The notes: generated from the letters alone by a model not told the origin. Counted from the stretch's first letter, positions 32,616 through 52,923 are shown. The stretch: 53,511 nt of DNA from a bacterium (GCA_040752695.1 JBFMGO010000030.1:1-53511); one strand, 5' to 3'. Translations and numbers: made by a program.

Positions 32616-33830
32616 TCAATCCAGGCAATTTGTTGTACCCAGATATTTTCTGAACAGGCAAAGTGCATCAGATGGAGTGACTAAACCATCTTTATTTACA
32701 TCTGCGCAGGGAGAGCAGGCACCAGATCCCAGGTAGCACTTGAAAGCAGCCAGCGCATCTGCGGGAGTGATAAGCTTATCTCCATTAAGATCACCGTTAC
32801 ATAAACCTTCATCAACTTCGCCATCACAATCATTGTCCAGGCCATCGGAGAGCTCATCTGCTCCCGGATATATCTGTGCATTCAAGTCATTGCAGTCTTT
32901 ATCCTCCTTGCTGTATCCTGATGGAGGAGTAAGTCTGAAAAAAAGCGAATAATCCATACTTCCGAACCCATCGTGATCTTCATCTCTATAATAGAAATTT
33001 GCAATCCTTGGCTGCGGGATAACCTTTGGCCCATAAGAGGTTGTTATTTTAGACTCCTGTGGGATATCCGCCATAAATTTTACCTCTCTGTTCACCTGGT
33101 TCTGTGCCTCATTTACATAGATTATCTCAGCTTTCTCACCGCCGTTTAGTTCAAGAGGTAATTTATTTTGATTAAAAAGATTGTTTAAATTTATACAAGC
33201 ATAATTTTCTTCAGGAAGAATGCACGAGCCTGCCCAGGCTGATAATGAATAATCATTCATTCGATTGTTCTGGCTATCGAGAATATTGACAAGAATTACC
33301 GATGAGCCGATGAGAGAATTATCACCTGCATGAAAAGACGGAAGTATCAACGTATCGTTGGTTACGATATTCCCTTCGTTCAGATATCCGGCTCCGTTCA
33401 ACTTTTCAGTTGTAACCATGTAATCCTCCCCGTAATAAGTAGGATTGTCCGGCGGAATAGAAGCCACGCCATCAGAGGTAAGTTGATAAAAATAGCTTGT
33501 GTTCTCTTCCAGCCCCTTTACCGTGAATCTGATAACCTCATTGAGCATAGACTCATGTGGTGCAGCGTGTGCTGGGGCAGGATCATTTTCTATTGTTACT
33601 CCAGCCTGCTGTATCAGGCTTCCCATACTATCATAAACCCGTAGATTAAACATTCCTTGGCCATGTTCTGATAAGCTATAAATGACGCTAAATGATTTGG
33701 TACACACATCGGTAACGTAAACCTGCTGTGACGCATGTACAGTTGCAGGATTTATATAGGGAATATTTAACCCGTTAATAATAGAAATGCTTAACAATAA
33801 TCCCAGGGATAAACAAATTTTTGCTTTCAC
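32616..33830 (-). CDS. Secreted protein: FN3-like N-domain, MopE-like metal-binding motif, C-terminal dockerin
   Basis: Signal peptide; VKGLEENTSYFYQL; DCNDLNAQIYPGADELSDGLDNDCDGEVDEG; duplicated F-hand loops GDLNGDKLITPADAL and ADVNKDGLVTPSDAL. Confidence 0.85.
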   Translation of the reverse strand: MKAKICLSLGLLLSISIINGLNIPYINPATVHASQQVYVTDVCTKSFSVIYSLSEHGQGMFNLRVYDSMGSLIQQAGVTIENDPAPAHAAPHESMLNEVIRFTVKGLEENTSYFYQLTSDGVASIPPDNPTYYGEDYMVTTEKLNGAGYLNEGNIVTNDTLILPSFHAGDNSLIGSSVILVNILDSQNNRMNDYSLSAWAGSCILPEENYACINLNNLFNQNKLPLELNGGEKAEIIYVNEAQNQVNREVKFMADIPQESKITTSYGPKVIPQPRIANFYYRDEDHDGFGSMDYSLFFRLTPPSGYSKEDKDCNDLNAQIYPGADELSDGLDNDCDGEVDEGLCNGDLNGDKLITPADALAAFKCYLGSGACSPCADVNKDGLVTPSDALCLFRKYLGTTNCLD

Positions 33831-34066
33831 AACTAAACCCCTCTCCTCATTCTTTTTTAATGGCTTTTATAACCGTATCAGAATCAGAAGTAACTAAGCT
33901 GATCTTAGCTTACTGCTCCTTCTATCCGTTTCTCTTTTTTCCACCTCTTCTTTCCTTGGGCTTGTTGTCCCTCAAAACTTATTGGCTTTCTAAGAGAAAT
34001 GTGTAGCCTTCTTTTATACCGTAAGCGCTCCCTTTGAATGGACTTCTTATACTGGTTTAATTTAGG

Positions 34067-34090
34067 AAGGCGGGGCTTACACCCCGCCTT
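34067..34090 (-). terminator. Hairpin after the two-cohesin gene (AAGGCGGGG...CCCCGCCTT)
   Basis: 9-bp GC-rich stem ~60 nt downstream of the stop. Confidence 0.65.
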
Positions 34091-34152
34091 TCCTTCTTAT
34101 AACCTCTCCATTGGGAAAGCTACTAAAAATCAGTTTAATCGAGATACCCTAA

Positions 34153-37100
34153 CTAATATAAAGGCCATATTGGCTGCTGGTAACTCCATAATGGCTGCAG
34201 CACATTATTCCAAACCGGCTGATTATTTGACCAGTTCCAATTGAACGTTGTCGGTTGTTGGTTGAGATTCCATGACTGTAGCTGGAAGTTGTACAGTTGC
34301 TGATTGAAATTTGAAAAAAGATCGCCAGATGATTGATAGGAGGTATAACTACTCCAGGGGCTTCCGCTCCAGTGTGCAGCGCCCCAGAGGTCTCCGCCAA
34401 GGTTACCGCCTAAAAATCCCGTAGAGGAGGCAATCTGCTTAACTGTTATCGTAGCTACACAGCTTGCCGGATTTCCACTCGCATCCATGCAACTGAATGA
34501 TACAACGGTATCGCCGAGACCGAATTTGGCAGGAGCATTATTCGTAACGTCTACCGAACCGCTCACGGTATCGTTGGCAGTAGCACCTTTTAAGAAAGCC
34601 TGGATTTTAGCATCACTGGCCAGTACACCATCTGCACTGTATGTTTCTACGGTAATATTAGCAGGGCAATTAATAGTCGGAGCTGTGAGATCAACGACAC
34701 TTACTGTAGCAATGCAGGTAGATGGATTTCCGGTGCTATCGACAGCACTGAATGTTACATCAGTATCACCGCCGAGACCAAACAAATCTGGAGCATTGTT
34801 CGTAACACTCGCTAAACCACTGACAGCATCGTTTGCTGTGGCACTATTCAGGAAAGCCTGAACTTCGGAATTGTTCACCGATACGCCGCTTGGTCCTTCT
34901 GCTTCTACCGTAATACCAACAGGACAGATGATAGCAGGACCCTGGGTATCGACAACACTTACAATTGCAGAGCAGCTATTCGTGTTGAAGGCCGTATCTG
35001 TAGCAGCAAAAAATACCTCTGTATTTCCGATACCGAACTGGGCAGGAGCATTATTGGTAACGCTTACCGAAACATCAACAATATCGCTCGCCGTTGCATT
35101 GTTCAGGAAAGCCTGTATTGCAGCATCCGAGCTTGATACACCATTGGGCCCTACTGCTTCCACCGTAATACCTGCAGGGCAATTGATATCAGGACGGGTT
35201 GTATCGACAACGTTTACTGTAGCTGTGCACGTAGCTGAATTTCCGGCGCTGTCCATTGCAGTAAAGGTCACTGATGTAGCACCAAGGCCAAATGAGGCAG
35301 GAGCGTCATTGGTGATACTCACTGTACCATCAATTGCATCAACGGCCGTAGCACCATTCAAGAGAGCCTGGATTGCGGCGCTGTTACCTGGCACGCCATT
35401 GGGCCCTTCTGCTTCGACCGTAATATCACCTGGACAGGTGATGTCAGGAGCGGTTTTATCAACAACGCTTACAATAGCAGTACATGTAGCTGGATTTCCA
35501 GCGCTGTCGGCTGCAGTGAAGGTAACGACCGTATCGCCAAGACCAAACATGGCAGGAGCAGTAGCGTTCACATTTACGACACCATCCACTGCATCGATAG
35601 CAACGGCTGCATTTATAAAAGCGAGAATTGCTGCTCTATCACCCGGTACACCATTTGGCCCTTCTGCTTCTATCGTGATATTTCCAGGGCAGGAAATATC
35701 GGGAGCCTTAAGATCAGCAACAGTCAATGTAGCTGTACAACTGCTGGTATTTCCTGCTGCATCCGTTGCAGTGAACGTTACATTCTGGGCACCTAAAGCG
35801 ATGACAGCAGGAGCGTCATTGATAATATCCACGACGCCAACGGTATCAATAGCCTGAACTGCATTCAAGAATGCTTGTACTGCAGAGTTGCTGCTCGATA
35901 CACCATTTGCACCCTCGGCCGCTACCGTAACATCTGCAGGACAAGTGATGACAGGAATAATGGTATCAACAACACTCACCGTAGCTGAGCATGTTGCTTT
36001 ATTTCCGGCACTGTCCATTGCATCGAAGGTTATGATGGTATCACCAAGACCACAAACGGCAGGTGCATTATTTATGACACTCACTGAACCATCGATATTA
36101 TCCACAGCAGAGGCACTATTCAGGAAAGCCTGAATATTTGCATTGCTGGTAGATGTACCATTTGCTCCCTCAGCCTCTACCGAAATACTGGCCGGACAGG
36201 TAATAATTGGAGCAACGGTATCACCGACCTCTACGATAGCTGTGCAATCTGATGTATTTCCAGCTTTATCAGTAGCGCTGAAGGCTACTGCCGTGGTTCC
36301 TATACTGAACTGCGCAGGAGCGTTGTTTATGACCGTTACCGGACCATCGTTAAGATCCGTTGCTACAGCAGAATCCAGGAAGGTCTGAATTGCAGCATTA
36401 CTGCTCGGTGTACCATTGGCATCATCCGCCATTACCGTAATATTTCCCGGGCAGGTGATGACTGGAGGATCAGTATCAGGAGCGAAAACGAGTTGTCCTC
36501 CCATAGTTGACCAGCCGAATACATCGTCAATCATGTTAACCAGGCTAAGGTCAGATATTTCACAGCTCTTAACCGTAAAAACCAGTTTAAGGATTGAGCC
36601 GCTATTTCCCAGCTCAATTTTCTGTGAACCGCCTACGGCTCCAGCCCTCAAGGTATTTGGTTTTGATGAAGGTTTACTGACATCGAGAAGCATGAATCCT
36701 TGAGTTAAATCACCCTTAGCGAAACTTTTATATTCAAGAATATTCTCATCATAGCTGATTTCAAAACCAAAGGCACTTGCAGCAGCAGGAGCGCTATCCA
36801 CTGAGATAGTAAAGGTTACTTCTTCCCCGGCGCCAACGCAACTCTGACTGTCAATGTTCATATTTGCAAGAACTACTGCGATCGTAAAGGTTTCTGAATC
36901 ACTTCTACCGGTAGAGTCCGTCGCCGTAATCGTTGCTGAATACATACCAACCTGAGCTAAGGTCGGTATCCAGACCAGGGTCGCGGTTGATGGATCGAAT
37001 GAAGAACCATCCGGTAATGATGTAGCTGAATAGATTATAGCGTCCCCATCCATATCATCGGCATGCGCCGTGAGATTAAGGGTACCCTCTGCCGTCACGG

Positions 37101-37875
37101 TTTGAGGGCCAATTGCCTGCAAGACCGGGGCATGAGGTTCCTGAACCGTAATCTGAAAGGTCTTTGAGTCGGTCCTGCCGGTACTATCCATTGCAGTAAT
37201 CGTTACAGCATAACTACCCGCCTGGCCCGGATTCGGTGTCCAGTCGAATTCTCCGCTCTGTGAGCCAAGATAGGCACCACTCGGCAAATCAGGGGATGAG
37301 TAGGTAATGGCTTCTCCGTCTTCATCCGTAGCTATGGCAGTAAAAGATATACTGTCACCAAGCCAAATAGACTGGTCACCTATGGCCTGCAAAACAGGGT
37401 TGTGCAGAATAGGTGCTGTAAGTCCTCCAGCTTGAGCTGGCCAGCCAGCCATCTCATCGACGAGATCGGTCAGCGTGATGGCAGCCGGTTCACAGCTTTT
37501 TACATTGAAAGTCAACGTTGCCATAGTCCCGTTTGCACCTTTGGCAATACCGGCACCAAGGTCCATTCCGCCAAATGTTAGAGTATTGGCACCGGCAGGG
37601 CTCAGGTCGCAGAATGTAAAAGCTGAAACAAGAGTGCCCTTTTCAAATTTAACATACTCCAGTACATTCCCATCATAATTGATCTTTAATCCAAAACTTC
37701 CTACGCTCGTAGGTGCATTAGTTACTGAAATCGTAAAGACCACTTCTCCACCGGCTGCTGTACACTGTTGACTATCTACTGTCAACCCATCCGCAGCGGA
37801 GGCCATTGGAGCATAGATGAGGGCCATTAACATTAATACCAAAAAAGCAATGCTTTTCTTGCAATTCTTACTCAT
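34153..37875 (-). CDS. Secreted scaffoldin-like protein: cohesin, 2x Ig-like (He_PIG), cohesin, 8x HYR-like, W/N/Q-rich tail
   Basis: Signal peptide (ASA); cohesins GSFGLKINYDGNVLEY...ATLTFNVK and AFGFEISYDENILEY...LKLVFTVK; LPSGA/LPDGS...WTP/WIP Ig repeats; eight D..P.I.CP..I.V units of ~85 aa. Confidence 0.85.
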   Translation of the reverse strand: MSKNCKKSIAFLVLMLMALIYAPMASAADGLTVDSQQCTAAGGEVVFTISVTNAPTSVGSFGLKINYDGNVLEYVKFEKGTLVSAFTFCDLSPAGANTLTFGGMDLGAGIAKGANGTMATLTFNVKSCEPAAITLTDLVDEMAGWPAQAGGLTAPILHNPVLQAIGDQSIWLGDSISFTAIATDEDGEAITYSSPDLPSGAYLGSQSGEFDWTPNPGQAGSYAVTITAMDSTGRTDSKTFQITVQEPHAPVLQAIGPQTVTAEGTLNLTAHADDMDGDAIIYSATSLPDGSSFDPSTATLVWIPTLAQVGMYSATITATDSTGRSDSETFTIAVVLANMNIDSQSCVGAGEEVTFTISVDSAPAAASAFGFEISYDENILEYKSFAKGDLTQGFMLLDVSKPSSKPNTLRAGAVGGSQKIELGNSGSILKLVFTVKSCEISDLSLVNMIDDVFGWSTMGGQLVFAPDTDPPVITCPGNITVMADDANGTPSSNAAIQTFLDSAVATDLNDGPVTVINNAPAQFSIGTTAVAFSATDKAGNTSDCTAIVEVGDTVAPIITCPASISVEAEGANGTSTSNANIQAFLNSASAVDNIDGSVSVINNAPAVCGLGDTIITFDAMDSAGNKATCSATVSVVDTIIPVITCPADVTVAAEGANGVSSSNSAVQAFLNAVQAIDTVGVVDIINDAPAVIALGAQNVTFTATDAAGNTSSCTATLTVADLKAPDISCPGNITIEAEGPNGVPGDRAAILAFINAAVAIDAVDGVVNVNATAPAMFGLGDTVVTFTAADSAGNPATCTAIVSVVDKTAPDITCPGDITVEAEGPNGVPGNSAAIQALLNGATAVDAIDGTVSITNDAPASFGLGATSVTFTAMDSAGNSATCTATVNVVDTTRPDINCPAGITVEAVGPNGVSSSDAAIQAFLNNATASDIVDVSVSVTNNAPAQFGIGNTEVFFAATDTAFNTNSCSAIVSVVDTQGPAIICPVGITVEAEGPSGVSVNNSEVQAFLNSATANDAVSGLASVTNNAPDLFGLGGDTDVTFSAVDSTGNPSTCIATVSVVDLTAPTINCPANITVETYSADGVLASDAKIQAFLKGATANDTVSGSVDVTNNAPAKFGLGDTVVSFSCMDASGNPASCVATITVKQIASSTGFLGGNLGGDLWGAAHWSGSPWSSYTSYQSSGDLFSNFNQQLYNFQLQSWNLNQQPTTFNWNWSNNQPVWNNVLQPLWSYQQPIWPLY
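34438..36477 (-). repeat. 8 tandem ~255-nt HYR-like coding repeats
   Basis: Each unit has ITCP...IQAFL..A.A.D..DG...NNAP..F.LG.T.V.F.A.D..GN...C. Confidence 0.9.
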
Positions 37876-37951: not shown

Positions 37952-40777
37952 CTAGTTACTTACACTACCGCACGTATTATCTAGACAAGATGGTTTCTCT
38001 AGATATCTATTCAAGACACATTCTGCATCCCGCAGAGTAACGTTTCCATCTCCATTTACATCATAGTAGTCGTTGCACTCGCCTGTTCCGAGATAGCAGT
38101 TTAGGATCGCCTGAGCATCAGCCAGAGACAGTTTTCCGTCTAGATTTACATCTCCGCAGCATTTCATCTCTACGGTTACCGTGGCTTCGCATTCTGCAAG
38201 GTTTCCAGCTTGATCTATTGCCTTAAAGGTAACGACTGTGGCACCAAGGGCAAATTCTGCTGGAGCATTATTAACGACCGTTATCGTGTCATCTGCAATA
38301 TCATTTGCTTGGGCACTGCTCAAGAAGGACTGGATTTCAGTATCGCCAATCGCTACGCCCTTCATACTCAGTGTTTTTACGGTAATACCTGCCGGGCAAG
38401 TGATGAGGGGAGCTGTTGTATCTACTACGCTTACAGTAGCAGTACAACTTACTGAATTTCCAGCTTTGTCGATAACCATAAAGGTTACAACCGTGTCGCC
38501 AAGGCCACATGCGGAAGGTGCATCATTAGCGACCTCCATTGAACCATCGACGATATCTTCCGCGACTGCACCCTTCAGGAAATCCTGAATTGCGCTATTG
38601 TCGGCAGATACTCCATTTGGCCCCTCTGCTTCAATCGCGATATTTGCCGGACACGTAATGACTGGAGCAGTTTTATCAACGACACTCACTGTGGCTGTAC
38701 AACTTGCCGGATTACCGGCTTTATCAATAGCCGTAAAGGTTACAACCGTATCGCCAAGACCTAATACGGAAGGTGCATCATTTGTGACCTCTACTAAACC
38801 ATCGACGAGATCTTCCGCGACCGCACCAGTTAAGAATGCCTGAATTTCCGTATTGCTGGCAGATGTCCCCTCAGGCCCCTCGGCCTCAACAATGATGTTA
38901 GATGGACAGGTAATAGCAGGAACGGTTGTATCGATAACACTCACCACAGCCGTGCAACTTGCAGCATTTCCTGCTTTGTCGGTAGCTGTAAAAGTTACAT
39001 CCGTATCACCGAGTGGTAATATTGCTGGAGCATTATTGATAATGCTCTCAACCGGATTATCGATATTATCAATTACTACTGCGTCCTCCAGAAATGCCTG
39101 AATGGCAGGATTTTCGACTGCTACTCCATCCGGACCCTCGGCTTCAACAGAAATATTTTCAGGGCAGGTAACTGCAGGAGGTGTAACATCGACAACAGTA
39201 ATAGTAATATTTTGCTGTGCCGTATTACCATACGTATCAGTAGCTTTTACCGTTAATATATTTTCACCTAGGACAAGAGCAATTTCACTATTGGGATCAA
39301 GTGCAGCTCCTTCTGAATCTTCAATGCTCCACTTCGGAAGGAATCCATCGTCATCCCTCAGCTCGGCCATGAGAATTTCACCGCAATAAATTTCTCCATA
39401 TTCCCCGGATAAACTTGGAATACCTTTAAATTTAGCAATCGTAGTCTGAGCATCTCCTGCTCCTACTGAGATTGAATCTGATACCAGAGTAATAACCGGT
39501 GCTACATAATCGCACCCTACTTTGCCTGCATCCGGTCCGCCATAAGCACCCATGTCATTAGCGGTAGTATCTCTATCAGCAAAGGTAACATCTGGATTCC
39601 CTGCATCAATGCAGTCGCTGCCAGCTTCCAAGCGATAGTCTTCAGTGAACTCAGGTGGCTGGCTAATATTCCCAGTTCCATTCTTAAATGCTGGGATAAT
39701 ACCAGTACCGGTGAAAATGTCAGAATATGTTACTTCGATCTCAGACAGTGGGAACCCTCGGGTTGCGAATGATTCCATATAGGATAGTTTACACCAGATA
39801 ATGCAATTAGTAATGGTTGGCAGAGCATTGCTGCAGAACAGATCATAATAGTTACCAGCCTGGGATAAATTCCTGGCGATGGTATTATTGGTCAGCACAG
39901 GACTACAATTGGATAAATAAATCCCGGCACCGCTTGTTCCTGATACATTTTCTACTACTTTGTTATTCGAAATGGCTGGATTACTGGAATCAACCAGGCA
40001 TAGCCCAGCACCTGAACCAATTGTTGCGCTGTTTTCATAGACAAGGTTATTCTGAAAGGTTAAATCCCTGCCCCAAAATTCTCCATAAACGCCGGCACCA
40101 TCTTTGCCTGAGATATTTTGTATGATTTCGTTATTCTGAATCGTGCCTTCTCCGCAGGAGCAGTAAATACCCCCGCCCAATTCATCGGAAGTATTGTTTT
40201 GAATAATACAATTACGAATTTCCGGTATACAATTAGAGAGGTATAATCCTCCGCCATATCTTGACGTATTGTTTTCAATAGTACAATTTAATATGGCGAT
40301 CGTATAACTATCAGGCTCCAGGGATTCACAAAAAACACCGCCGCCTCTTTGTGACTTGCCATTTCTGATTGTGAACCCATCAATGAGCACACCATTTGCA
40401 CCAACCAATGCTGATGTTGCATTTCCGCCGTCTATGACGGTTTTATTTTTCAGGAAGTCCCTTTCCTCTCTTTTTGTTTCAATCCCTGCAAACCCGCCAT
40501 AGAGATGAATATTAGAGCTGAGTTGAACTTTTCCTTTATAAGTGCCTCTGGCTACCCATATTTCATTATATCCCAAATCATTGGCCAGATTTATTCCTGC
40601 TGTGATGCTCGGCACTGCATCATCCCAGGAGAGGCCGCTCACGCCTTGACTCGCTTGATCAACATAGATGCATTGAGCCTTTACTATTCTCGATCCCAGA
40701 ACGAGAGAGAAAATGAGGCTCAAAAAAACTAATAATGCATTTTTACCAAATGCATTCTTTCTTTTGTGATTTTTCAT
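37952..40777 (-). CDS. Secreted right-handed beta-helix (pectin-lyase-like fold) protein with 4-5 HYR-like repeats and a C-terminal dockerin
   Basis: IYVD..., EIWVARGTY, LYGGFAG, IDGFTIRNG and GGGLY/GAGIY repeats, SDCIDAGNP...DMGAYGG; loops GDVNLDGKLSLADAQ and DVNGDGNVTLRDAE. Confidence 0.85.
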   Translation of the reverse strand: MKNHKRKNAFGKNALLVFLSLIFSLVLGSRIVKAQCIYVDQASQGVSGLSWDDAVPSITAGINLANDLGYNEIWVARGTYKGKVQLSSNIHLYGGFAGIETKREERDFLKNKTVIDGGNATSALVGANGVLIDGFTIRNGKSQRGGGVFCESLEPDSYTIAILNCTIENNTSRYGGGLYLSNCIPEIRNCIIQNNTSDELGGGIYCSCGEGTIQNNEIIQNISGKDGAGVYGEFWGRDLTFQNNLVYENSATIGSGAGLCLVDSSNPAISNNKVVENVSGTSGAGIYLSNCSPVLTNNTIARNLSQAGNYYDLFCSNALPTITNCIIWCKLSYMESFATRGFPLSEIEVTYSDIFTGTGIIPAFKNGTGNISQPPEFTEDYRLEAGSDCIDAGNPDVTFADRDTTANDMGAYGGPDAGKVGCDYVAPVITLVSDSISVGAGDAQTTIAKFKGIPSLSGEYGEIYCGEILMAELRDDDGFLPKWSIEDSEGAALDPNSEIALVLGENILTVKATDTYGNTAQQNITITVVDVTPPAVTCPENISVEAEGPDGVAVENPAIQAFLEDAVVIDNIDNPVESIINNAPAILPLGDTDVTFTATDKAGNAASCTAVVSVIDTTVPAITCPSNIIVEAEGPEGTSASNTEIQAFLTGAVAEDLVDGLVEVTNDAPSVLGLGDTVVTFTAIDKAGNPASCTATVSVVDKTAPVITCPANIAIEAEGPNGVSADNSAIQDFLKGAVAEDIVDGSMEVANDAPSACGLGDTVVTFMVIDKAGNSVSCTATVSVVDTTAPLITCPAGITVKTLSMKGVAIGDTEIQSFLSSAQANDIADDTITVVNNAPAEFALGATVVTFKAIDQAGNLAECEATVTVEMKCCGDVNLDGKLSLADAQAILNCYLGTGECNDYYDVNGDGNVTLRDAECVLNRYLEKPSCLDNTCGSVSN
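38165..39190 (-). repeat. 4 tandem ~255-nt HYR-like coding repeats homologous to those at 34438-36477
   Basis: Same consensus as in the neighbouring gene. Confidence 0.88.
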
Positions 40778-40997: not shown

Positions 40998-43082
40998 TTA
41001 TGGAAGAAAGGCGAGTTTGTCCTTTTTCATATAAATGATGTAACTTTCGTCTTTATAAATTGGGAAATTATCCCCTGCTGGTTTCCCGGACTGGCAAAAA
41101 GCTATATACCACCGGCCACTCGTCTTTTCATGTCTTTGAATCGCCACGACTTCTACCTGCCTGTCCAGCATTTCCTGAAGCAAATCGAAGGATGTAAATG
41201 ATGCGCTCGGAACACTAAAGGATACTAAATTAATCCCTTGATAGAGATTGGTTTCAAAAGAAGCATTCATTCCGGGGAAAACGAGATCCTGGTGCACCTT
41301 GGAATACACTAAATATCCGTCCCCATTATTAATGGTGAATATGTCCCCTGCAGGAGATTGGCCATTCCAGTAAGCCACTTGCCATTGTTCGCTCTGATTA
41401 TCATAATGCCACAGGCTTTGAAGAGATTGAGGGGTAAAATACTGGGTTAAAAAATCATAGGAAATATATGATGAAGGGACAGTTACTGGATAGCATATCA
41501 AATTTAATCCACGAGTCAGGCTAACTCTTTCCTCGGGTCCTAACTGAATCGTAAACCCCTTCGGCAAAGATCCTGTAGTTCCACCTGCTGTTACCGCAAG
41601 ATCATAGATTCCAACTTGCAGAAAGTCAGCAGGGACAATAGCTCTCAATGTGGTCGTATTAACAAAACTTACCTGGGTTAACTCCTGTGATCCGATTGTA
41701 ACCTTCGATTCAGAAGAAAAGCTCTTTCCCGTGATAGTAATTTCCTGGCTTTGGTTGTTAAAGCATTTATTCGGATCAACCCCTGTAACTGATACTGGAG
41801 CCGAGCGCACCGTATAAGCATCAGGAAGCACTCCTACCAAGCCTGCTGAAGTAGTAACAGTTATCGGATAAGATCCGGCACTTAATCCTGCCGGTATTTC
41901 AGCGTAAATAATGACATCACCGGAATAACCGGTAACCTTCAGGGGAGTGGTACCGAGGGTTACCTGCGAGCCCGAAAAAAGATTAGAGCCGATGATCCAG
42001 ACAAGAACCACTTGTTCGTTTGAACCATTATCGGGCGTAAGTTTAGCAGGTCGAGGTGTAGCGGAAGGTAATACCTTAAAGCCATTAGGCACTGTTGTGC
42101 TGGTACTTCCAATGATCACGGTTAAATCATAAGTCCCCACTGATAAATACTGAGCTGGTACAGTTACCTTTAAGGTAGCCGTATTAATGTAATTTACCTG
42201 AGTCAGTTCGAGGGTCCCGATTTTGACAATCGCCCCTGCTGCGAAACCGCTTCCCGTGATGGTGATCTCACGTGTAAGATCGGAATAATTCTCATTTGGC
42301 TCAATCTTGGTTACAGAAACTGGAGCAGGGAGCACCTTATAACCATTCGGCAACGTCCCTGATCTCTCTCCTACGATTACCGTAACGTCATACGTTCCAA
42401 CAGGGAGAAGCCGTGCCGGAACAGTAGCTTTCAGGGTAGTCCCATTTATGTAAGATACCTGCGACAGTTCTGTCGAACCAATCCTTACCCTCGCTCCTGC
42501 GGCATAATTTGTTCCGGTGATGGTTATTTCCTGGCTTCGATCGGCATAATTCTCATTCGGTTCAACCTTAGTAACCATTACAAGTGAATTATAGCTTATG
42601 TCAACTCTCCATGGCTCATCGTCATTATGTTTCCATGTGAGGCGACCTGAAGCGTCCTTCACCGTTGAACTCAAAATGGAAACCTGAAAGCCACTGGTCA
42701 ACTCTATCCCCTTCTTAGCATCCCATAACCTTATTTCCAGAGCATTCCCGATCCGGGGACCTTTATTATTGATAATAGCGTTATAATTAAAAATATTTAT
42801 AAGAAAACTTCCATCAAATCTATCTATACATGTCGCTCCACATAAGAAGCCCTGATAGAAGACTCCTATTTCATCACCTGTCCGAACCTGTTGATCAATG
42901 GTTAGAGTTCCCGTAATATCCATGATATCAGCAGAGCCGGGACTTGGCATCCACTCAGGATTCATATTCGGTCTAAGATCAAAGTGCATTTGATCACAAG
43001 CCCCTCGAGCAGATAAACCGCTTATATGCAGCACCATAATAACAATCATAAAAGCGAAAATTTTCTTATATTTATTAGACAT
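40998..43082 (-). CDS. Secreted protein with 4 IPT/TIG domains, an N-terminal uncharacterised beta domain and a duplicated C-terminal 'L..G.NL...GY' domain
   Basis: Signal peptide; four V..V.P...ITITG..F/Y..G..V.IG-type units. The alternative GTG start at 43103 overlaps the upstream stop. Confidence 0.85.
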   Translation of the reverse strand: MSNKYKKIFAFMIVIMVLHISGLSARGACDQMHFDLRPNMNPEWMPSPGSADIMDITGTLTIDQQVRTGDEIGVFYQGFLCGATCIDRFDGSFLINIFNYNAIINNKGPRIGNALEIRLWDAKKGIELTSGFQVSILSSTVKDASGRLTWKHNDDEPWRVDISYNSLVMVTKVEPNENYADRSQEITITGTNYAAGARVRIGSTELSQVSYINGTTLKATVPARLLPVGTYDVTVIVGERSGTLPNGYKVLPAPVSVTKIEPNENYSDLTREITITGSGFAAGAIVKIGTLELTQVNYINTATLKVTVPAQYLSVGTYDLTVIIGSTSTTVPNGFKVLPSATPRPAKLTPDNGSNEQVVLVWIIGSNLFSGSQVTLGTTPLKVTGYSGDVIIYAEIPAGLSAGSYPITVTTSAGLVGVLPDAYTVRSAPVSVTGVDPNKCFNNQSQEITITGKSFSSESKVTIGSQELTQVSFVNTTTLRAIVPADFLQVGIYDLAVTAGGTTGSLPKGFTIQLGPEERVSLTRGLNLICYPVTVPSSYISYDFLTQYFTPQSLQSLWHYDNQSEQWQVAYWNGQSPAGDIFTINNGDGYLVYSKVHQDLVFPGMNASFETNLYQGINLVSFSVPSASFTSFDLLQEMLDRQVEVVAIQRHEKTSGRWYIAFCQSGKPAGDNFPIYKDESYIIYMKKDKLAFLP

Positions 43083-43099
43083 TGATCTATTTAACCTCC

Positions 43100-44238: not shown

Positions 44239-47200
44239 CTAAGGCCATGAGATGTTGCAATCACCCTTAACCCTCATCATATAACCGAATCCAGGTCCTA
44301 CGCACTTAAGATCGGTAAGACCACGAAGGATTGTATAGTTAATATCAGTTACAGGAGGATTATACCAGCACTTGGTACCTTTATAGGAGGTCTTGATGCG
44401 ATCTACTGATGATTTGAAGGAATCGAAAGCATAATCAATGCTATCTACGAGCACAGCACTCCCGGTAGCACTCGAGAAGAGATTCGCCATTTCTTCAGGC
44501 ATATCTCTATAGTAGATATTACCACCCCAATAACCAACCATGTTCCATCCGGTCCCTTTTACGGGCAGACGATATTTTGGAGTGTTATCCTCTACTATGT
44601 TACCGAGAACTACCAGCTTGGCATTTTCAACCTCTGGAATGTAAATCCAGTATCCATTTCCAATAGAGAAATATTCTACCTTCTTGACATCCTTGGTGCT
44701 GCCAGCCTTTGTTTGTCTGATAGCGTCACCAGCGGGTTTTGAACCATCATAGAAGTAAATTCTTTCCCACTGGCCACTCAAAGATGAAAGAACGTTATCG
44801 ATAGAGGGTACGTTCACGACAGGGCAAACACTCTGACCAACAGGGATGCCTGTAGCATCATCAACCAACGCAGTTCCCGGATTCGGTGTAGTGCTGCCAT
44901 CGTTAACGACGTATCTCTTTAAAGTAGAGAAGGAAACAAAATTCCAGCCCTTGTAAAGAGACTTGCTCTCATAGCTGCCAAGGTCTATATCGTGTACCTG
45001 GACATCATCATTTTTCCAGGCAAGATAATAACCTTGATCATCTTTACAGTTATTGGTTACCAAATACTGTTTCGGTGTCGCATCGTTACTCTCAACTACC
45101 AGGAAGATGGAATCCCCTTCTTTGAAACCAGGAGTCGTGAATTCACCATAAGCATGCATGGCATAACTGCCATCTTCTCCGATGATAGCGCACGATCCAT
45201 AGCAAACACCATTCTTGCTTTTTCCTGGTGCCAAGACAGCGTTGATAGAAACAACGTTAGGATCTCTTGCCACTTTATCAAGGTATTTGGTTTCCTGTCT
45301 GCCGCTGTTGTACTGATATACGTGTGCATAGCGATAGAGGTTATTCAGGCTGTATGCATACACTCTCCAGCCAGCAGGAACAGCCTCTCCGTCAGCATCG
45401 GTAATGGTTCCGGTAATCGTCATTGAATATGCAGAAGGTTCCGGTTCATGGTCAGCTATTGGATCTGTCGCAGATTCAGGCGTCTTCACGACAGCTTTTT
45501 GTGGTACGATATCTCCTGTACCTGAACCACCTGCCGTAAACACTTGGGCAAAATTACCGGCCTTATCAAAAATACCATCTTCTGTGTACACGATACCGTC
45601 GGCTGGAACAGTGTCCGTCGCGGGTCCGAAGTAGAGATTATTAATAATACCGGTTCTCGTTGCAGCATCTGCACCAATTATATCTGCCGTAAACTGTACA
45701 ACTTTTCCGTAGCAACCGTTCAAATTATAATCAAGGATATCAACTTCCGTATCGGCATAGACGCGATCAAGGCGATACTGTTCATCGGTCACTACCGTTA
45801 CGGTACGATAAGCGGTAAAGTCTTTTGCTGCAGAAATCTTGTCTGGTACGTCTGCGATATCAACATCCGGGTTCCAGACATTCGGATCGATCTCTTCGGA
45901 ATACTGGACCCTGATTGTGTAGGTATCCCTGTCAGTGCCATTGCTCTTTATCTGATAGGTAACCGCAACCGGATAAGGATTGGCAGCATCCGTGATACCG
46001 CTTGCAAGCACTCCGATCGGTGAGCTTACCTTGTGATAGGTCGTTAACGTATCGTCTTCTGGATCGGGGAATGCGACATCACACCTCACATAATTGTCTG
46101 CATCAAGATAAAGGGTAAAGCCAGGTTTTGCACCTGTATCGAAAGCATCCTTCTCTTCCAGATAAATGGTCATCTCATCGTTCGTGATGCTTATTGGAGA
46201 TGATGTATCGGTGCTCAGGCTGTAACCGTCTACCGTGGTTTTGGATGCGACCAGTGCCGGGCTGTAGAAAGCCGGGACGATTGGCTCATTCCAGGTCAAC
46301 AGCAATGCATCGATGTGACCATCGGCATCTTCATCCATCGTGGACGCTTCGGTAATCCAGGGGACGGTTGCATCAAAAACCGTTACTCCCGGATTGTATT
46401 CAGCAGAATAGCCATTTATATCTTTGATCATATCCAGATCATTGATCATTACCGCTGTTCCGTTCGGGATCTCATCTTCACCCATCTGGATTTCGATCGT
46501 ACTGGTTGATCCTACCGACTGCAAGATCTTGGAACTATATCCGAACTCGAGCGTTCCGGGAAGGGCAAAAATACTATCGAGAGAAACCAACAACATGGTG
46601 CTGTTGACCTGTACCGCTTCGCTGAAGGTAAGGGTCAGCACATGATTTTCAGATTCATCCGCCATTGGCTGTGTGCTAGAAGGATGCTTGTCATACGATG
46701 CAGAGGTAATATAGGGACCTATTCTGTCAAGGGTGGCAACGCCTGCATTGTTACTGATCAACAATCCTCTGGTAGGACTGGTGCCCTTAATGTTGGCCAT
46801 ACCATCTTCAGTAATCTTCACTTTCGGAAGTCCGCTGGCGCTGGTATCTGAAATTGCGGCATCAATGGTCAGCGTGACATATTTGCCATCCGCACTCTGC
46901 ACGGCTGAATCCACCACAACTCCCTGGCTTGCATCGTCCTCGTCAACAAGCACATCCTCCAACCCTGGTACCATTTCAACCCAATAGTACGATTCGTCCT
47001 CTACCTCAGGTCCCATTACGTCATTGAAGTGGACCTGGATATTGGTTTGACCGGCAACGATATTTCTTACTTCGACACGAGCCACCTTGCTGCCAAGCTT
47101 GCTCAGTACCTCACACACAGGAGCCTTATTACCCTCTTTGTCCTTGATCTTGGTAAACTCGCCAACCTGTACAGAGGTATTCACTTTCAACGCCCTGCCA

Positions 47201-48504
47201 AGAACGATCATGCGATCATTGTCCGTGGAGTATGAGGCTGCTATCGAAGTATTTTTCTCGCCAGCTATGATAAGAGAATTCGGATCGAGAGAAGCTAATT
47301 TGTCGAGGGGATCACTGAAGAGCAGGAAGGTCTTACTTCCGCTGTCGTCTACCAGAGATTCCAACAGTACAGGCCCGACCTCGTCTCTAATGTCACTAAC
47401 ACCCATATAGACCATTCTGGCACCATTATTTGCGCCAACGGTCATCTTTTCGAGCGTTGTCCATGAAGTAATCCAGGTACTGAAATCCGGGTTACTGACA
47501 TCCATTGTATCAATGGTGAAGACGTTCCATGATTCTTCCGGAGTGGAGGTACGACCGGAAATATCCGTTACCTCGCCATCCTTATAGTACACAAGGGTAC
47601 TGGGAGTAGCTGGTATTTGAGCACTGGCAGGTATGTAAAGACTGACAGTAGCTGTAGGTGAGGCATAGGTTACCTTGACATATGCATCCAGGTTATTGCT
47701 GATCCCTGCATGCTGCCGGTAGTTAATACCGGTAATGGCGGCAAATGGATTAACAAGGGTATTACCGCTCTTATCCTTGCACTCAATCAGAATATCGAAG
47801 GGGTTGGCTATATTGCCGACCTTCATAAATGACGCTGAGTCCAGAATAAGAGTTGCAGGATTGTCAAACTGTGAAGATTGTGCCATGTTGACGCGATCTG
47901 CGGTTGTACCGTCTACTCTTCCTTTAGCCCAGAGAAATACATCCTCATCCTCATCGGTAGCTGTTACGCTTGCAGTAAAGAAGTTACGAATTTCACTGCC
48001 AGGCACAGGCAAGAAGGAAGCAGCAACGTCAGGCTGAACATAATCGACATCAAATGACTTGAGACCACTTAAGCCTCTAATGCTGACATCAATTCTATCG
48101 ACGGGAACGCCATTGACCGTCAGATCAGATGCCAAGATCACAAAGGACCCTCTCAAATCACCACTGCTGCTGCACGTACATTTGTTAGTAGTAGTGACTG
48201 GAGGGATGGAAATGTACTTTACCGCATCATATTCGGGCTCATCGACTGTACCGGTATTCACGAGGCAGGTGACATTGATATCTCCGGCGCCTAATACACC
48301 TGTATAGCCTTTCCCTTCATAATAGATTGTCCGATTTGTAGCGGAGAGCTTATCATACGGAGCCTGGGTAGGATCGCTCTTATCGTAAGCCCTGATATCT
48401 TCCGGGTTCATAGTCGGTGCTGCCCAAGCGCTGCTTCCCGCAAGGGCTACACAGGCTAAAATCAATAAAGTTGCTATAAAAGTAAATCCTTTTTTCATAG
48501 ACAT
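44239..48504 (-). CDS. Large acidic secreted protein, S-layer-like (Ig-like beta repeats)
   Basis: Signal peptide (AWA); D/T/V-rich; repeated L.F/YSE/D...D..GN motifs; strong AGGAGG RBS, long leader and its own terminator. S-layer role is inferred. Confidence 0.7.
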   Translation of the reverse strand: MSMKKGFTFIATLLILACVALAGSSAWAAPTMNPEDIRAYDKSDPTQAPYDKLSATNRTIYYEGKGYTGVLGAGDINVTCLVNTGTVDEPEYDAVKYISIPPVTTTNKCTCSSSGDLRGSFVILASDLTVNGVPVDRIDVSIRGLSGLKSFDVDYVQPDVAASFLPVPGSEIRNFFTASVTATDEDEDVFLWAKGRVDGTTADRVNMAQSSQFDNPATLILDSASFMKVGNIANPFDILIECKDKSGNTLVNPFAAITGINYRQHAGISNNLDAYVKVTYASPTATVSLYIPASAQIPATPSTLVYYKDGEVTDISGRTSTPEESWNVFTIDTMDVSNPDFSTWITSWTTLEKMTVGANNGARMVYMGVSDIRDEVGPVLLESLVDDSGSKTFLLFSDPLDKLASLDPNSLIIAGEKNTSIAASYSTDNDRMIVLGRALKVNTSVQVGEFTKIKDKEGNKAPVCEVLSKLGSKVARVEVRNIVAGQTNIQVHFNDVMGPEVEDESYYWVEMVPGLEDVLVDEDDASQGVVVDSAVQSADGKYVTLTIDAAISDTSASGLPKVKITEDGMANIKGTSPTRGLLISNNAGVATLDRIGPYITSASYDKHPSSTQPMADESENHVLTLTFSEAVQVNSTMLLVSLDSIFALPGTLEFGYSSKILQSVGSTSTIEIQMGEDEIPNGTAVMINDLDMIKDINGYSAEYNPGVTVFDATVPWITEASTMDEDADGHIDALLLTWNEPIVPAFYSPALVASKTTVDGYSLSTDTSSPISITNDEMTIYLEEKDAFDTGAKPGFTLYLDADNYVRCDVAFPDPEDDTLTTYHKVSSPIGVLASGITDAANPYPVAVTYQIKSNGTDRDTYTIRVQYSEEIDPNVWNPDVDIADVPDKISAAKDFTAYRTVTVVTDEQYRLDRVYADTEVDILDYNLNGCYGKVVQFTADIIGADAATRTGIINNLYFGPATDTVPADGIVYTEDGIFDKAGNFAQVFTAGGSGTGDIVPQKAVVKTPESATDPIADHEPEPSAYSMTITGTITDADGEAVPAGWRVYAYSLNNLYRYAHVYQYNSGRQETKYLDKVARDPNVVSINAVLAPGKSKNGVCYGSCAIIGEDGSYAMHAYGEFTTPGFKEGDSIFLVVESNDATPKQYLVTNNCKDDQGYYLAWKNDDVQVHDIDLGSYESKSLYKGWNFVSFSTLKRYVVNDGSTTPNPGTALVDDATGIPVGQSVCPVVNVPSIDNVLSSLSGQWERIYFYDGSKPAGDAIRQTKAGSTKDVKKVEYFSIGNGYWIYIPEVENAKLVVLGNIVEDNTPKYRLPVKGTGWNMVGYWGGNIYYRDMPEEMANLFSSATGSAVLVDSIDYAFDSFKSSVDRIKTSYKGTKCWYNPPVTDINYTILRGLTDLKCVGPGFGYMMRVKGDCNISWP

Positions 48505-48936
48505 GTGAGAAAACCTCCTAACCGTTATACGAATTATTAAACTGACGCACTCTAACCTCGAACGATTGTATGAAAGTTTAAAGTGTATGTATTTTTTTTA
48601 CTACCTCACCTCCTTACAACTTTTACTCTATCTAGAATCTCCTAGACAATGATTCTATTCTCATCACCTCCTCTAAAAAGTCAGTTATTTCATGTAATCT
48701 TAATTCTGTTGGTATATGCGTTGTTTGGTTTTTCCATATTCCTGAACAGTCAGCCTTTGGTTAATCCATTGAGTGCTGATTGCATAATTGATTACCTGGT
48801 TTAAAGCCAGCATCTTCATTCCTTTAGAACGATATTTTGTGGTAGATTACAGCCATGAATTCCACCCGTCCTCTCTTTCTCATGGATCAAAAGCATATTC
48901 TAAGCCGCGCTGCCACTCTTAACCTTGCAGTAGCTT

Positions 48937-48953
48937 ATGCAAGTTTTGTACCT
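48937..48953 (-). promoter_or_regulatory. Putative sigma54 promoter for the S-layer-like gene
   Basis: Minus strand AGGTACAAAACTTGCAT = GG-N10-GC with TTGCA; a TGT-N10-ACA motif lies upstream at 49301-49316. Confidence 0.55.
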
Positions 48954-49878: not shown

Positions 49879-52800
49879 CTATTGAACGAAATTTTCATCC
49901 AGGCATGAAGGAAGTCTCATATATTTTCTGAATAAGCATTGGGCATCAGCAGGTGTAACTGTCCCGTCCTCGTTGACATCACAACACCTTGGACACGGAC
50001 CGCTGCTCATGGAGCATCTGAAAGCGATCAAGGCATCGGACGGTGTTATACGGCCATCTTCATTCAAATCACCATCACAGGGGGGAGAAATCCTTATACA
50101 CCCACCTGACACGCTAAAGAGGGCAACGTCATCTACCTGTCCTTCCAGAATCAGGGGATAGTGACAATTTTCCAGGTCTGAGAGGATTTGGAATTTCAGA
50201 AAAACCAAGTCTCCCTGGCTATTTTGAACAATGCTATTGCTGTCCGGACTGCCATCAAATCCACCGATGCGTATGCGGCCGCCTCCCATATCATTGACAT
50301 TAAACATATCAAAAGATTGGCTCAAAGGACCTCTCTCATGGCCCAGATACATAAGAGCGCCGGAATCATAGACCACATCAAAGCCTATGCCCTCTACATC
50401 CTGTTCAGCCCTTTGAATGCGAATCGGAACCCGGACCTCATCGCCGGTTCTTCCGGCTGCATCTCCTATATCTATGGTTCCGTAATCACCTTCATCGCAC
50501 TGGCATCCTTCAGGTTCCGGTCCACCGGTTCCACTGATAACAGTAGTATATCCTGAAGGTAAACGATAGGAAATCTGGATATTCTGAAGGGTCTTGACCG
50601 AATCATCGACATTGATAACAGCCTGGCCGTCTCTGGAAAAGGACTGTCCCAGTATCTGGCCGTCTCTGATCAGGGAAACGAGGACGTTTTCTTCAGGCGT
50701 CGGAATGGTATATTGGGCGGTGACTGTTTGAAGGGGGCCTGGATCGGGAAGCGGTAGCTTTACGTATTGAATTTCCTTGTACAGCCGGGACCAGGGAAGA
50801 GTGATTATATGAGGATTTTTTGTCCAGAGTGTCACGGTAGGATCCCCCAGACAGTGAAAAAGTTCAAATTCTGTCTGGGCTGTACTGCCTGACCATCCGC
50901 CTTCCACATACATCTTGGCCGCATTCAGAACATCGCCAAGCCGTTTTGATGTGGTTGTACCTGAGGGCGCAAGATAGAAGTCAGGCCAGATATATTCAGT
51001 CAGGCCCCTGGTCAGATCGTCATTCGGATAGGTAGGTGAATTCCTGGTGGCCGCAATAACCGCCAGAGCGCCTCCATCCATGGTCAGAAGCTGCTCGGCA
51101 AAAGATTCAGTGGTCGTGTAAGCGTCTTGATCGGTCTCGTTGTCAAACCAGCCGGACTGACAGTTAATGCTGAAAACCACAGGGCTCAAGGCTCCTGTGT
51201 CCAGGCCTGAAAGATTGGAGGTAGTAAAGCCCGGGTGCGACCATCCGCTTCTGCCTGCATGGTCCCGGTGAGCCAAAAGAACTGCACCTGAATTGAGGCC
51301 GGTCACGATATCGGAGGCATTTCCATCCCAGGCAAATCCTGGCTTTTTAAGGTCTGACGGAATGGAACTGCCATCCTGATAATACTGAGGATTGCTGCCG
51401 CTGGAAACATACTCCCTCTGGACAGTGTAGCCATGGCCTGAGAAATAGCTGTATAATTCCTGGATGGTCTGGACATAATTCCTGTCATCCCGGCCGTTAT
51501 TGTCGCCATCCTGGAAGTATGCGGCAAGGATAACACGTTTATAGAAGGAGGAGTCAGTTGGCGGGTTTTTCTCGTACTCGATGGTGCGGTTTACCACTCT
51601 TTCGCTTTCAGTCTCGGAATTTACCGGCATGCGGCCAATGGCCAGGTCGGGAAAATATCCTGTTCCATCCATCTCTGCATAATAAAGATCCGTTGGCGTG
51701 CACGATACTCCTGACGGTGTCCGATAATGAGGAGGAATAAATTCTGCATCTCCCATGAGCAAGACATAATCAAGGCTATTATATGTATAGATATCTTTGA
51801 TATAGGCGCGGATATCCCCTGCCGTGGTCCCGCCCTGGCGGATCTGGATCTGGTCCAGAGTTCTAACCCAGGTTTTAAATCCTTTCTCCCTCTTCCATGT
51901 GGCCAGAGCTTCGGCCTGAGAGTAAAATTCTTCCGGTGTAATGATCAAAAGATCGCATACAGATTCGAAGATCGTATGTGCCTTAGCCAGAAGTTCAGCC
52001 TGGCTCAGTGGCTTGACCAGTGAATAATTAGCCAGGGTCGTGCTGAAGGTACTTTCAAAGTAAACAGACCGATTCTCTTCTGGAATATAGCCATCTTCTC
52101 CTCCGGTAAAGCTGACATTCAGCGTAAGATCCGGGTAAAGAAGGAGTTCCTGTGTGGCGGGATTATACCGTGCGCTCGTTACCTGAATAACGGCGACCTT
52201 ACATCCTCGAAGTATATCGTAACGGACGGAAGTGAGCGTTTCGGGCAAAAACCGATTCAGCCGATAATTGATTTTATCTATAAAAGGTGGGGTTGTTTCA
52301 AAGTTCTGGGATTCAGCCGATTGGTCTTCCGGCATCGGCTGGATCGGACAAACTCTGATGCCGCTCATGACCGTTGGTTCGCCTTCGACCACATCGATCT
52401 GCATCTTTGCACCAATCGGAACGGCCACGATTTTGGTAAATCCCGGCAATCCTGGTTGGCCTTGCTCTCCTCTGACTGAACCCTCAGGCCCTGTCAGTGC
52501 AAGTTTTTGATATTTCTGCTCATTGCCCACGATTTCCATCAGGTTAACCGTAGTGAGCTGGCTCTGGATTGCAAAATTCCTGGGATCCCTTTGTTGGGGA
52601 ATGATTTTAAAAAGTAAGGATTGACTGGTCTGAGGCCCGGCCAGGGATACCTCCCTCAAGGTAATAGCCAGGATTGACAAAGTGTCTGGAGATACTGGGG
52701 TTATTTTCGATACGTCGAGGCTTTTACTGCTGGTCAGGTCAATTGATTGAGGAGCCACTATCGATAGCGGGCTTTTTATCGCTACCGGAATAGTCGCTGC

Positions 52801-52923
52801 TGTAACCGCATGCGGAAAACATGAATTCATCAAGATACCAAGACCAAAAATAAAAAATAGAAACACTGCCGAAGCCGAAGAGGTGAAATATCCTGTCTCA
52901 ATGCTTTTTTTCTTCTTTACCAT
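49879..52923 (-). CDS. Gingipain-family (peptidase C25) cysteine protease with propeptide, C-terminal cohesin and dockerin
   Basis: GQPGLP...VAVP propeptide; LLIITP, WKREKGF, YVLLMGD, TDLYY, PDLAIGRMP, catalytic HRDHAG and FSINCQSGWFD, LGDP; cohesin GIGFDVVYDSGALMY...LVFLKFQI; dockerin GDLNEDGRITPSDAL and DVNEDGTVTPADAQ. Confidence 0.9.
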   Translation of the reverse strand: MVKKKKSIETGYFTSSASAVFLFFIFGLGILMNSCFPHAVTAATIPVAIKSPLSIVAPQSIDLTSSKSLDVSKITPVSPDTLSILAITLREVSLAGPQTSQSLLFKIIPQQRDPRNFAIQSQLTTVNLMEIVGNEQKYQKLALTGPEGSVRGEQGQPGLPGFTKIVAVPIGAKMQIDVVEGEPTVMSGIRVCPIQPMPEDQSAESQNFETTPPFIDKINYRLNRFLPETLTSVRYDILRGCKVAVIQVTSARYNPATQELLLYPDLTLNVSFTGGEDGYIPEENRSVYFESTFSTTLANYSLVKPLSQAELLAKAHTIFESVCDLLIITPEEFYSQAEALATWKREKGFKTWVRTLDQIQIRQGGTTAGDIRAYIKDIYTYNSLDYVLLMGDAEFIPPHYRTPSGVSCTPTDLYYAEMDGTGYFPDLAIGRMPVNSETESERVVNRTIEYEKNPPTDSSFYKRVILAAYFQDGDNNGRDDRNYVQTIQELYSYFSGHGYTVQREYVSSGSNPQYYQDGSSIPSDLKKPGFAWDGNASDIVTGLNSGAVLLAHRDHAGRSGWSHPGFTTSNLSGLDTGALSPVVFSINCQSGWFDNETDQDAYTTTESFAEQLLTMDGGALAVIAATRNSPTYPNDDLTRGLTEYIWPDFYLAPSGTTTSKRLGDVLNAAKMYVEGGWSGSTAQTEFELFHCLGDPTVTLWTKNPHIITLPWSRLYKEIQYVKLPLPDPGPLQTVTAQYTIPTPEENVLVSLIRDGQILGQSFSRDGQAVINVDDSVKTLQNIQISYRLPSGYTTVISGTGGPEPEGCQCDEGDYGTIDIGDAAGRTGDEVRVPIRIQRAEQDVEGIGFDVVYDSGALMYLGHERGPLSQSFDMFNVNDMGGGRIRIGGFDGSPDSNSIVQNSQGDLVFLKFQILSDLENCHYPLILEGQVDDVALFSVSGGCIRISPPCDGDLNEDGRITPSDALIAFRCSMSSGPCPRCCDVNEDGTVTPADAQCLFRKYMRLPSCLDENFVQ

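Follow-up and report, generated by a model that had tools for sequence, protein, structure and literature searches.

Contig C30 of an uncultured Gram-negative anaerobe (source genome G000; 6.05 Mb, 96.6% complete) was analysed over its entire length of 53,511 nucleotides, hereafter the window. Between positions 32616 and 52923 it carries seven co-oriented open reading frames (ORFs) on the minus strand, A to G, all at the coordinates which the original prediction had assigned to them. That prediction described a non-cellulosomal cohesin-dockerin complex built around G, a gingipain-type protease. We find that the modules and their non-cellulosomal nature stand, and that the locus is a small sample of a genome-wide set of cohesins and dockerins, in which the protease appears to be an exchangeable client and not the core. 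The seven genes encode exported proteins as predicted, except that the N-terminus of E, read by eye without a signal-peptide predictor, resembles an uncleaved membrane anchor and not a cleaved signal peptide. Omp85 proteins are present in G000, and two GspD secretins are over cut-off in all three genomes of the genus (G000, G001 and G002), which indicates a Gram-negative cell with type II secretion. Further comparisons covered a phylum sample of 20 genomes and 11 genomes outside the phylum.

Three cohesins (two in B, one in G) and three dockerins (A, C and G) had been proposed, and all pass the Pfam cut-offs of 24.1 bits for Cohesin and 22.9 bits for Dockerin_1. The dockerins score 26.7 (A), 33.8 (C) and 26.8 bits (G), the cohesin of G 34.1 bits. 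The cohesins of B, identified by Pfam and profile alone, were not listed by whole-protein hmmscan and are over the cut-off in a six-frame family search (scores in Table 1). In the dockerins, two calcium loop-helix repeats are present by Pfam, profile, alignment and model. The cohesin-dockerin unit of G was modelled with a predicted local distance difference test score (pLDDT) of 93.7. Its cohesin compares best with type I cohesins (Z 17-19; top 19.0, root-mean-square deviation 1.9 over 133 residues) and has an Archaeoglobus cohesin as top Foldseek match (E-value 2e-12). The module shows a full type I-like fold and is therefore not an unrelated spacer module. A complex prediction with two copies of the G cassette, run without control complexes, scored 0.16 and 0.14 against a mark of 0.42.

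A genome-wide count of partners had been suggested together with the original prediction. Using profiles built from the window's own cohesin and dockerin domains, we counted 41 cohesins, spread over 32 ORFs of G000, and 45 dockerins, spread over 44; Pfam alone gave 40 and 47 matches, respectively. Among the 50 module-bearing ORFs, 26 carry both modules, 18 a dockerin only and 6 a cohesin only, and no protein has more than three cohesins. The cohesin is fused directly to a dockerin in 25 cassettes, distributed over 24 proteins. The spacing equals that of G within one residue in 24 of the 25, and since the profile boundaries were seeded from G, this shows constant spacing. In the model of G about six residues separate the last cohesin strand from the first calcium loop; with so short a link, binding in cis seems unlikely.

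The Pfam scan of the network covered 48 of the 50 ORFs. Besides two C25 proteases and a papain-family protease, we find among the clients an alpha-2-macroglobulin, PQQ-type propellers, beta-helices, vWA proteins and a CotH kinase that has lamin-tail domains; a CARDB domain and a client of 3,948 residues also belong to the network. The papain-family protease (contig C25) ends, like G, in a cohesin followed by a dockerin, and a protein at G000:C6:51774-53873 has three cohesins, two HYR repeats and one dockerin. Three clients are redox proteins: an anaerobic carbon monoxide (CO) dehydrogenase with a twin-arginine translocation (Tat) signal, a cytochrome with 23 CXXCH motifs and a diheme protein. 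The CO dehydrogenase (L017:1-2289 = G000:C47:20670-22958) scores 583 bits against a cut-off of 478 and carries a Tat motif, one CXXCH and a C-terminal dockerin; a full-length copy of this fusion is found in G002 at 91% identity. The 23-heme cytochrome with its dockerin (L028:1-3975 = G000:C83:13746-17720) has a dockerin-free paralogue in G000, in a cluster on C50, and because of this paralogue the fusion looks recent; among the matches listed for the relatives, none spans both heme region and dockerin. On G000:C50, G001:C88 and G002:C22 alike, a multiheme cytochrome cluster lies within about 9-12 kb of a gene that matches the cohesin twice and also has a dockerin.

No cellulase, CBM3 or SLH match was obtained in the seven proteins and no LPxTG motif in their last 60 residues, in agreement with the original prediction. 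Its wider claim of a non-cellulosomal system also proved right. GH5, GH9, CBM_3, SLH and sortase gave no match each in G000, with matches in control genomes; GH48 was found in none of three genomes, with control genomes also giving no match. Among the ORFs scanned there was no glycoside hydrolase catalytic family, and the beta-helix clients could be polysaccharide lyases. A true cellulosome was ruled out, as there is no GH5, GH9 or CBM3, no SLH or sortase anchor and at most three cohesins per protein, two in B.

The dockerins form one cysteine-rich family with a median identity of 60%. In an alignment of 44 sequences, calcium positions 1 and 12 are Asp in all 44 and in both repeats. Pro10 is found in 42 and 38 of the 44 (repeats 1 and 2), Leu14 in 37 and 39, and Phe17 in 38 and 40; Pro10 corresponds in alignment to the Ser in the Ser-Thr pair of C. 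thermocellum. One dockerin specificity is likely from this pattern. Six cysteine positions are common, and two of them covary (both present in 33 sequences, neither in 6, one alone in 5 and 0), which suggests disulfides. Positions 11 and 18 vary. The dockerin of C is an outlier without Pro10, Leu14 and Phe17, and Pro10 is missing in its G001 and G002 orthologues as well.

The cohesins fall into two classes. In a tree of 39 sequences (bootstrap not settled), a clade with support 98/93 unites six cohesins, which come from four proteins without a dockerin; we call it the anchor class. Its members are B, a two-cohesin protein with a lipoprotein-type cysteine that is conserved throughout the genus (three of three genomes), an aromatic-tailed protein and a lone cohesin of 173 residues. 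Gly35, Gly75-Gly76 and Asp119-Asp120 are common to both classes and lie on strands which we take to be the dockerin-binding face in clostridial cohesins. Close relatives of the fused cohesin also occur as tandem copies that do not adjoin a dockerin. B, with eight HYR repeats and two cohesins, bears out the claim of an HYR-stalked scaffold and is a candidate stalked anchor; its low-complexity tail is a candidate surface tether. Ten ORFs of G000 pass a tail filter, B among them and the nine others on contigs C4, C5, C13, C47, C50, C54, C63, C96 and C150; B-like aromatic/polar tails are found on other dockerin-free cohesin proteins in G000, G001, G002 and G007. At L086:5995-9169 (G000:C25) the gene for the lone 173-residue cohesin stands beside that of the papain-family protease with its terminal cassette. 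A cassette beside a lone cohesin gene is likewise found in G003, G004 and G005; since these genomes have few other modules, the pair may be the oldest part of the system.

G is probably an active protease which would cleave after basic residues, because the catalytic dyad and a third residue are kept: His555 and Cys588 align with His211 and Cys244 of RgpB, and Asp480 takes the position of RgpB Asp163. Its propeptide scores 57 bits with Propeptide_C25. A role as PorU, the type IX secretion sortase, was rejected (NF033707, 104 bits against a cut-off of 420). The type IX C-terminal sorting domain gave no match in G000, and none in the control genomes either. The three C25 proteases of G000 end differently, in cohesin-dockerin, in HYR-dockerin and in the C-terminal domain found in D, from which the protease would appear exchangeable. 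G orthologues in G007 and G012 lie away from F, E and D, and that of G012 has no cassette. In G001 the orthologue (L077:5057-8158, G001:C122) has an in-frame stop near codon 134, in the N-terminal region, while the other six genes are open; this stop could be an assembly error. A complex built around the protease is thus not upheld, as the locus holds 3 of the 41 cohesins and 3 of the 45 dockerins and G orthologues occur elsewhere. In G001 and G002, genes with prepilin-like N-termini (by eye) are found on the upstream side of the G orthologue (L077:245-2671; L080:13671-17215); the window ends before the matching position.

D, E and F carry neither cohesin nor dockerin. The C-terminal domain of D (about 180 residues; model pLDDT 94.5) occurs in 18 ORFs of G000, as a rule in large proteins that are exported, the third C25 protease being one. 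In 16 of the 18 it lies within 10 residues of the end; 11 of the 18 had served to train the profile. Foldseek returned no match for its fold at an E-value of 0.001 (best Z 4.5), and Atlas look-alikes in other bacteria and archaea all belong to unnamed clusters. This domain is a candidate second sorting or docking tag. The small domains of E, D and F are weakly related (hhalign 46-79%) and look like further terminal tags; a similarity of the tail of F to the C-terminal domain of D is weak and at best tentative (hhalign 2.3% and 21%). The last 410 or so residues of F recur in another exported protein of G000. That these domains form a second plug-and-socket pair is speculation. One protein, L013:1-1476 (G000:C27:6565-8040), carries a dockerin followed by a close relative of the C-terminal domain of E (E-value 5e-29) and could bridge the dockerin network to the F-E-D proteins. 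Word-limited homologue searches with residues 480-1020 of F and 229-330 of E returned the query itself and one weak match, and the Atlas gave no usable match for F. The predicted tie to an S-layer-like protein finds no support: nothing tested points to such a role for F, which has neither module and no named family except a weak Big_5 match. In codon bias F ranks 1896 of 2856, which says little in a genome with weak bias.

The features are listed in Table 1. Gene A, with orthologues at 50% identity in G001 and 43% in G002, would be a terminal client of the network. The basis for its earlier label as a metal-binding protein is one short PF11617 motif. The gap between G and F measures 1,374 bases and holds conserved promoter-like blocks, that between B and C 76 bases. 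The block at 48929..48952 we take to be a sigma-54-like motif. Several non-coding blocks at 48505-49345 are conserved in the three genomes, among them a leader with repeated AGGAG motifs and a small hairpin. Rfam found no family in the non-coding stretch upstream of F, just one chance match to a long non-coding RNA, and promoter and terminator scans stayed at chance level (36 versus 36.2 and 15 versus 14.7). An 11-pair GC-rich hairpin between B and A (34065-34092) is a possible transcription break. The genes that face the cluster at 29359-32483 encode a multi-pass membrane protein with TPR and a family 2 glycosyltransferase; they keep their synteny in G001 and G002 and might serve in surface-protein glycosylation.

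Table 1. Genes, modules and conserved block of the A to G locus in the window
Feature	Position	Strand	Description
Gene A	32616..33830	-	404 residues; signal peptide, unnamed beta-rich domains, one MopE-type Asp/Cys motif, C-terminal dockerin
Dockerin of A	32619..32804	-	Family-consensus type; Pro at position 10 in both repeats
Gene B	34153..37875	-	1240 residues; two cohesins, two Ig domains, eight HYR repeats, low-complexity tail; without dockerin
C-terminal tail of B	34156..34425	-	Rich in Trp, Tyr, Ser, Gln and Asn; almost uncharged
Cohesin 2 of B	36478..36864	-	39.2 bits; anchor-class clade
Cohesin 1 of B	37408..37791	-	45.1 bits; anchor-class clade
Gene C	37952..40777	-	941 residues; right-handed beta-helix, four HYR repeats, divergent C-terminal dockerin
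Dockerin of C	37979-38164	-	Divergent; without Pro10
Gene D	40998..43103	-	701 residues; unnamed N-terminal domain, four TIG domains, unnamed two-repeat C-terminal domain; without cohesin or dockerin
D C-terminal domain	41001-41537	-	Two-repeat; also in other exported proteins
Gene E	43100..44092	-	330 residues; N-terminal membrane segment, long charged linker, small C-terminal domain
Gene F	44239..48504	-	1421 residues; large, acidic, exported, probably Ig-like; without cohesin or dockerin
Conserved non-coding block	48929..48952	-	GG-N10-GC spacing; about 430 bases upstream of F; also in G001 and G002
Gene G	49879..52923	-	1014 residues; gingipain-like C25 protease with propeptide, then fused cohesin-dockerin cassette
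Cassette of G	49897..50487	-	Cohesin 50083-50487 fused directly to dockerin 49897-50082

Gene order was compared among relatives, as had also been suggested with the original prediction. The order of the seven genes is kept in all three genomes of the genus, B having orthologues in G001 and G002, and this supports A to G as a functional neighbourhood. An F-E-D-C-like block is found in G008, a genome without a match to the dockerin family, on a contig that ends before the position of G. The dockerin profile matched 21 times in G001, 32 in G002, 8 in G007 and 5 in G013, and 0-2 times in each of the remaining 15 phylum members; the 11 genomes outside the phylum gave no match. Among the matches listed, full cassettes number 13 in G001, 14 in G002, 3 in G007 and one each in G003, G004 and G005. 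A wider protein library contained 410 representatives at an E-value of 1e-30 or better; among 154 library proteins, 63 from outside G000 have a cohesin-dockerin and 18 a cohesin-cohesin-dockerin arrangement.

We favour, with slightly more confidence than doubt, a shared genome-wide display network which is rooted by anchors and in which the protease is one chain-extending client. Proteins would enter the periplasm, form disulfides and leave folded via type II secretion, components of which are seen. Dockerin-free proteins with anchor-class cohesins, namely the lipoprotein and the tailed proteins including B, would root the network on the cell, with the eight HYR repeats of B holding its two cohesins clear of the cell. 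Clients would plug into these sockets through a single, symmetric family of calcium-loop dockerins, which is seen in sequence. Where the domain run ends in cohesin-dockerin, as in 24 proteins including G, every protein that docks would bring a further socket, so that chains form; proteins with two or three cohesins to one dockerin would make them branch, and those with a dockerin alone, A and C for instance, would cap them. The modules may accordingly be read as a grammar of roots, extenders, branchers and caps, next to which F, E and D would be co-located surface proteins using other terminal modules. Such a network would probably serve to display proteins on the surface for several ends: scavenging of proteins, adhesion and redox chemistry outside the cell. 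A bolder form, which we offer tentatively and with considerable doubt, is a self-extending branched mesh without a master scaffoldin and with one dockerin specificity, joining digestion and electron transfer. In such a mesh the 25 cassettes would extend, multi-cohesin proteins branch and dockerin-only proteins cap, and proteases, a protease trap, adhesins, CO dehydrogenase and multiheme cytochromes would share one outer matrix; F, E and D would possibly be a second pair, bridged by the dockerin protein with the E-type domain.

Several points weigh against the shared network. Anchor-class cohesins differ from the fused ones in sequence and disulfide, and the two may not share clients. Two more dockerin-free cohesins fall outside the anchor clade, in a tree whose bootstrap is not settled. 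The varying dockerin positions 11 and 18 may hide several specificities within one family. Anchoring by the low-complexity tail is read from sequence, and binding and location in the network are deduced from sequence and models. Unrestricted chain growth would need control during export, and no such mechanism was found. A rival reading is a two-tier display without a polymer, which we hold to be rather unlikely. Here only the anchor-class cohesins of B, the lipoprotein and the tailed proteins would bind dockerins, and the fused cohesin would stabilise its own dockerin, like the X module of an X-dockerin, or recruit a small special client set. The fixed cassette spacing and the separate clustering of the anchor class fit this, and about eight dockerin-free cohesin domains for 45 dockerins would still be enough for simple display. 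However, the fused module is a full type I-like cohesin with the same conserved Gly/Asp positions as the anchor class, its relatives occur in tandem away from a dockerin, and 18 proteins carry a dockerin with no cohesin, so that the dockerin needs no partner module to fold.

Seven genes in conserved order recall the dedicated complex of the original prediction, protease-centred, with A, C and G on B and a tie to F as S-layer protein. B and C are close neighbours that both contain HYR repeats, and the divergent dockerin of C may have a private partner, perhaps B, which also speaks against a wholly shared network. Yet the dockerins of A and G are ordinary members of the 45-member family, G is set off from F across the promoter-like blocks, its orthologues lie elsewhere in G007 and G012 and are interrupted in G001, and F, E and D lack both modules; such a complex is improbable. 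A scaffold between the membranes, rooted on the lipoprotein and organising proteases, alpha-2-macroglobulin and redox enzymes, we consider more improbable still. The lipoprotein anchor and the c-type cytochromes are in its favour, and the Tat-signal CO dehydrogenase and the inner-membrane-like E would fit a periplasmic location as well, again at the expense of surface display. Bacterial alpha-2-macroglobulins are usually periplasmic. HYR stalks, CARDB, vWA, beta-helices, CotH kinase and very large clients are, however, typical of outer surfaces, and secretins of type II secretion are present in all three genomes. Least credible, and very improbable, is that the modules do not bind each other but serve as spacers stabilised by calcium, or as tags for export, and owe their spread to domain shuffling. 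Dockerins have been swapped on and off cargo, as the dockerin-free paralogue of the 23-heme cytochrome shows, but the genomes in which cohesins have multiplied are also those in which dockerins have, and the residues of the recognition helix are conserved in the two repeats. Moreover, the closest Foldseek match is the Archaeoglobus cohesin, and archaeal pairs are reported to bind (PMC9012536).

The system works like several known ones, which are compared here as far as the accessible portions of the cited sources go, and it is not a cellulosome. The amylosome of R. bromii contains Amy4, in which an enzyme, a cohesin and a dockerin are joined; the cohesin of Amy4 binds the dockerin of Amy4 itself and can multimerise (PMC4611034, PMC12663171). 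G has the same order of catalytic domain, cohesin and C-terminal dockerin as Amy4/Sca1, and peptidases are among amylosome clients (PMC4611034, PMC12663171). The amylosome, however, has one Amy4-type enzyme among 26-27 dockerin proteins and sortase anchors in a Gram-positive starch degrader (PMC4611034, PMC12663171), whereas here 25 cassettes lie in 24 proteins of a Gram-negative cell, with no sortase found and no GH13 among the 48 proteins scanned. The hypothetical planctosome of Nemodlikiaceae, a non-cellulosomal peptide-degrading complex of a diderm cell, shares HYR, cohesin, dockerin and lamin-tail domains with the present system (PMC6461901), and a planctosome-type adaptor of dockerin, HYR and cohesin is present at the C6 position given above. 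It has few components, M12B/M14 peptidases and an LTD-P-domain anchor (PMC6461901), in contrast to 50 components with C25 and C1 proteases here, where the LTD protein bears a dockerin and CotH but no cohesin. Neither a lamin-tail/P-domain/cohesin anchor nor M12B/M14 clients were found in the scanned ORFs (E-value 1e-6 or looser).

A dockerin-tagged gingipain-like C25 protease on a cohesin scaffold has been proposed for another uncultured anaerobe, Candidatus Stygibacter of the Cloacimonadota (PMC8542988). That organism has a single scaffoldin of 3,755 residues with CBM2/3 and a C-terminal attachment domain, and GH18/GH57 clients (PMC8542988); here there is no large scaffoldin and no CBM3. Up to 149 dockerins and 80 cohesins are counted in genomes of anaerobic methanotrophic archaea (ANME; PMC5244752), and an ANME-2c cohesin list includes C25 domains (PMC9012536, supplement S4). 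ANME and their partner sulfate reducers resemble the present case in having dozens to more than 100 modules without cellulolysis and proteins with a dockerin plus several cohesins, and attachment of multiheme cytochromes has been hypothesised for them; unlike here, ABC binding proteins and S-layer domains are common ANME clients (PMC9012536, PMC5244752, PMC10553843). In the accessible parts of these three papers, no direct dockerin fusion to CO dehydrogenase or a multiheme cytochrome was found, and of the 20 'cytochrom' rows in the ANME supplement, 9 were covered, none of them a multiheme domain. R. flavefaciens ScaH, ScaF and ScaI are cohesin-dockerin proteins, the ScaH dockerin recognising its own cohesin, but these adaptors are few, non-catalytic and part of a true cellulosome of several specificities (PMC5301203). 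G shares with RgpB and Kgp (PDB 1cvr, 4rbm) the propeptide, the His-Cys dyad, the S1 Asp and a following Ig-like domain; unlike gingipains, it ends in cohesin-dockerin and not in a type IX tail, has low overall identity and comes from an environmental organism. The accessible parts of PMC13487519, PMC12484212 and 10.1101/2023.11.21.568195 held nothing decisive for this system.

C25 proteases with a dockerin, HYR adaptors, large module counts and self-binding fusions thus each have precedents. In the accessible literature, with supplements and subscription papers as places that may hold cases, we found neither the fused cassette as majority architecture nor a dockerin directly on CO dehydrogenase or a multiheme cytochrome; nor did we find this lineage's system described, most subscription papers lying outside the search. 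The role of non-cellulosomal cohesin-dockerin systems is stated as an open question in the ANME literature, as far as accessible (PMC9012536, PMC5244752). The genus offers a clean test case, with one dockerin family, two cohesin classes and small modules expressible in E. coli. A disulfide-rich pair with new recognition residues could also serve as an orthogonal tool for designer scaffolds. If the cassette binds in trans, self-extension in the manner of Amy4 would organise the whole cell surface, redox enzymes as well as hydrolases.

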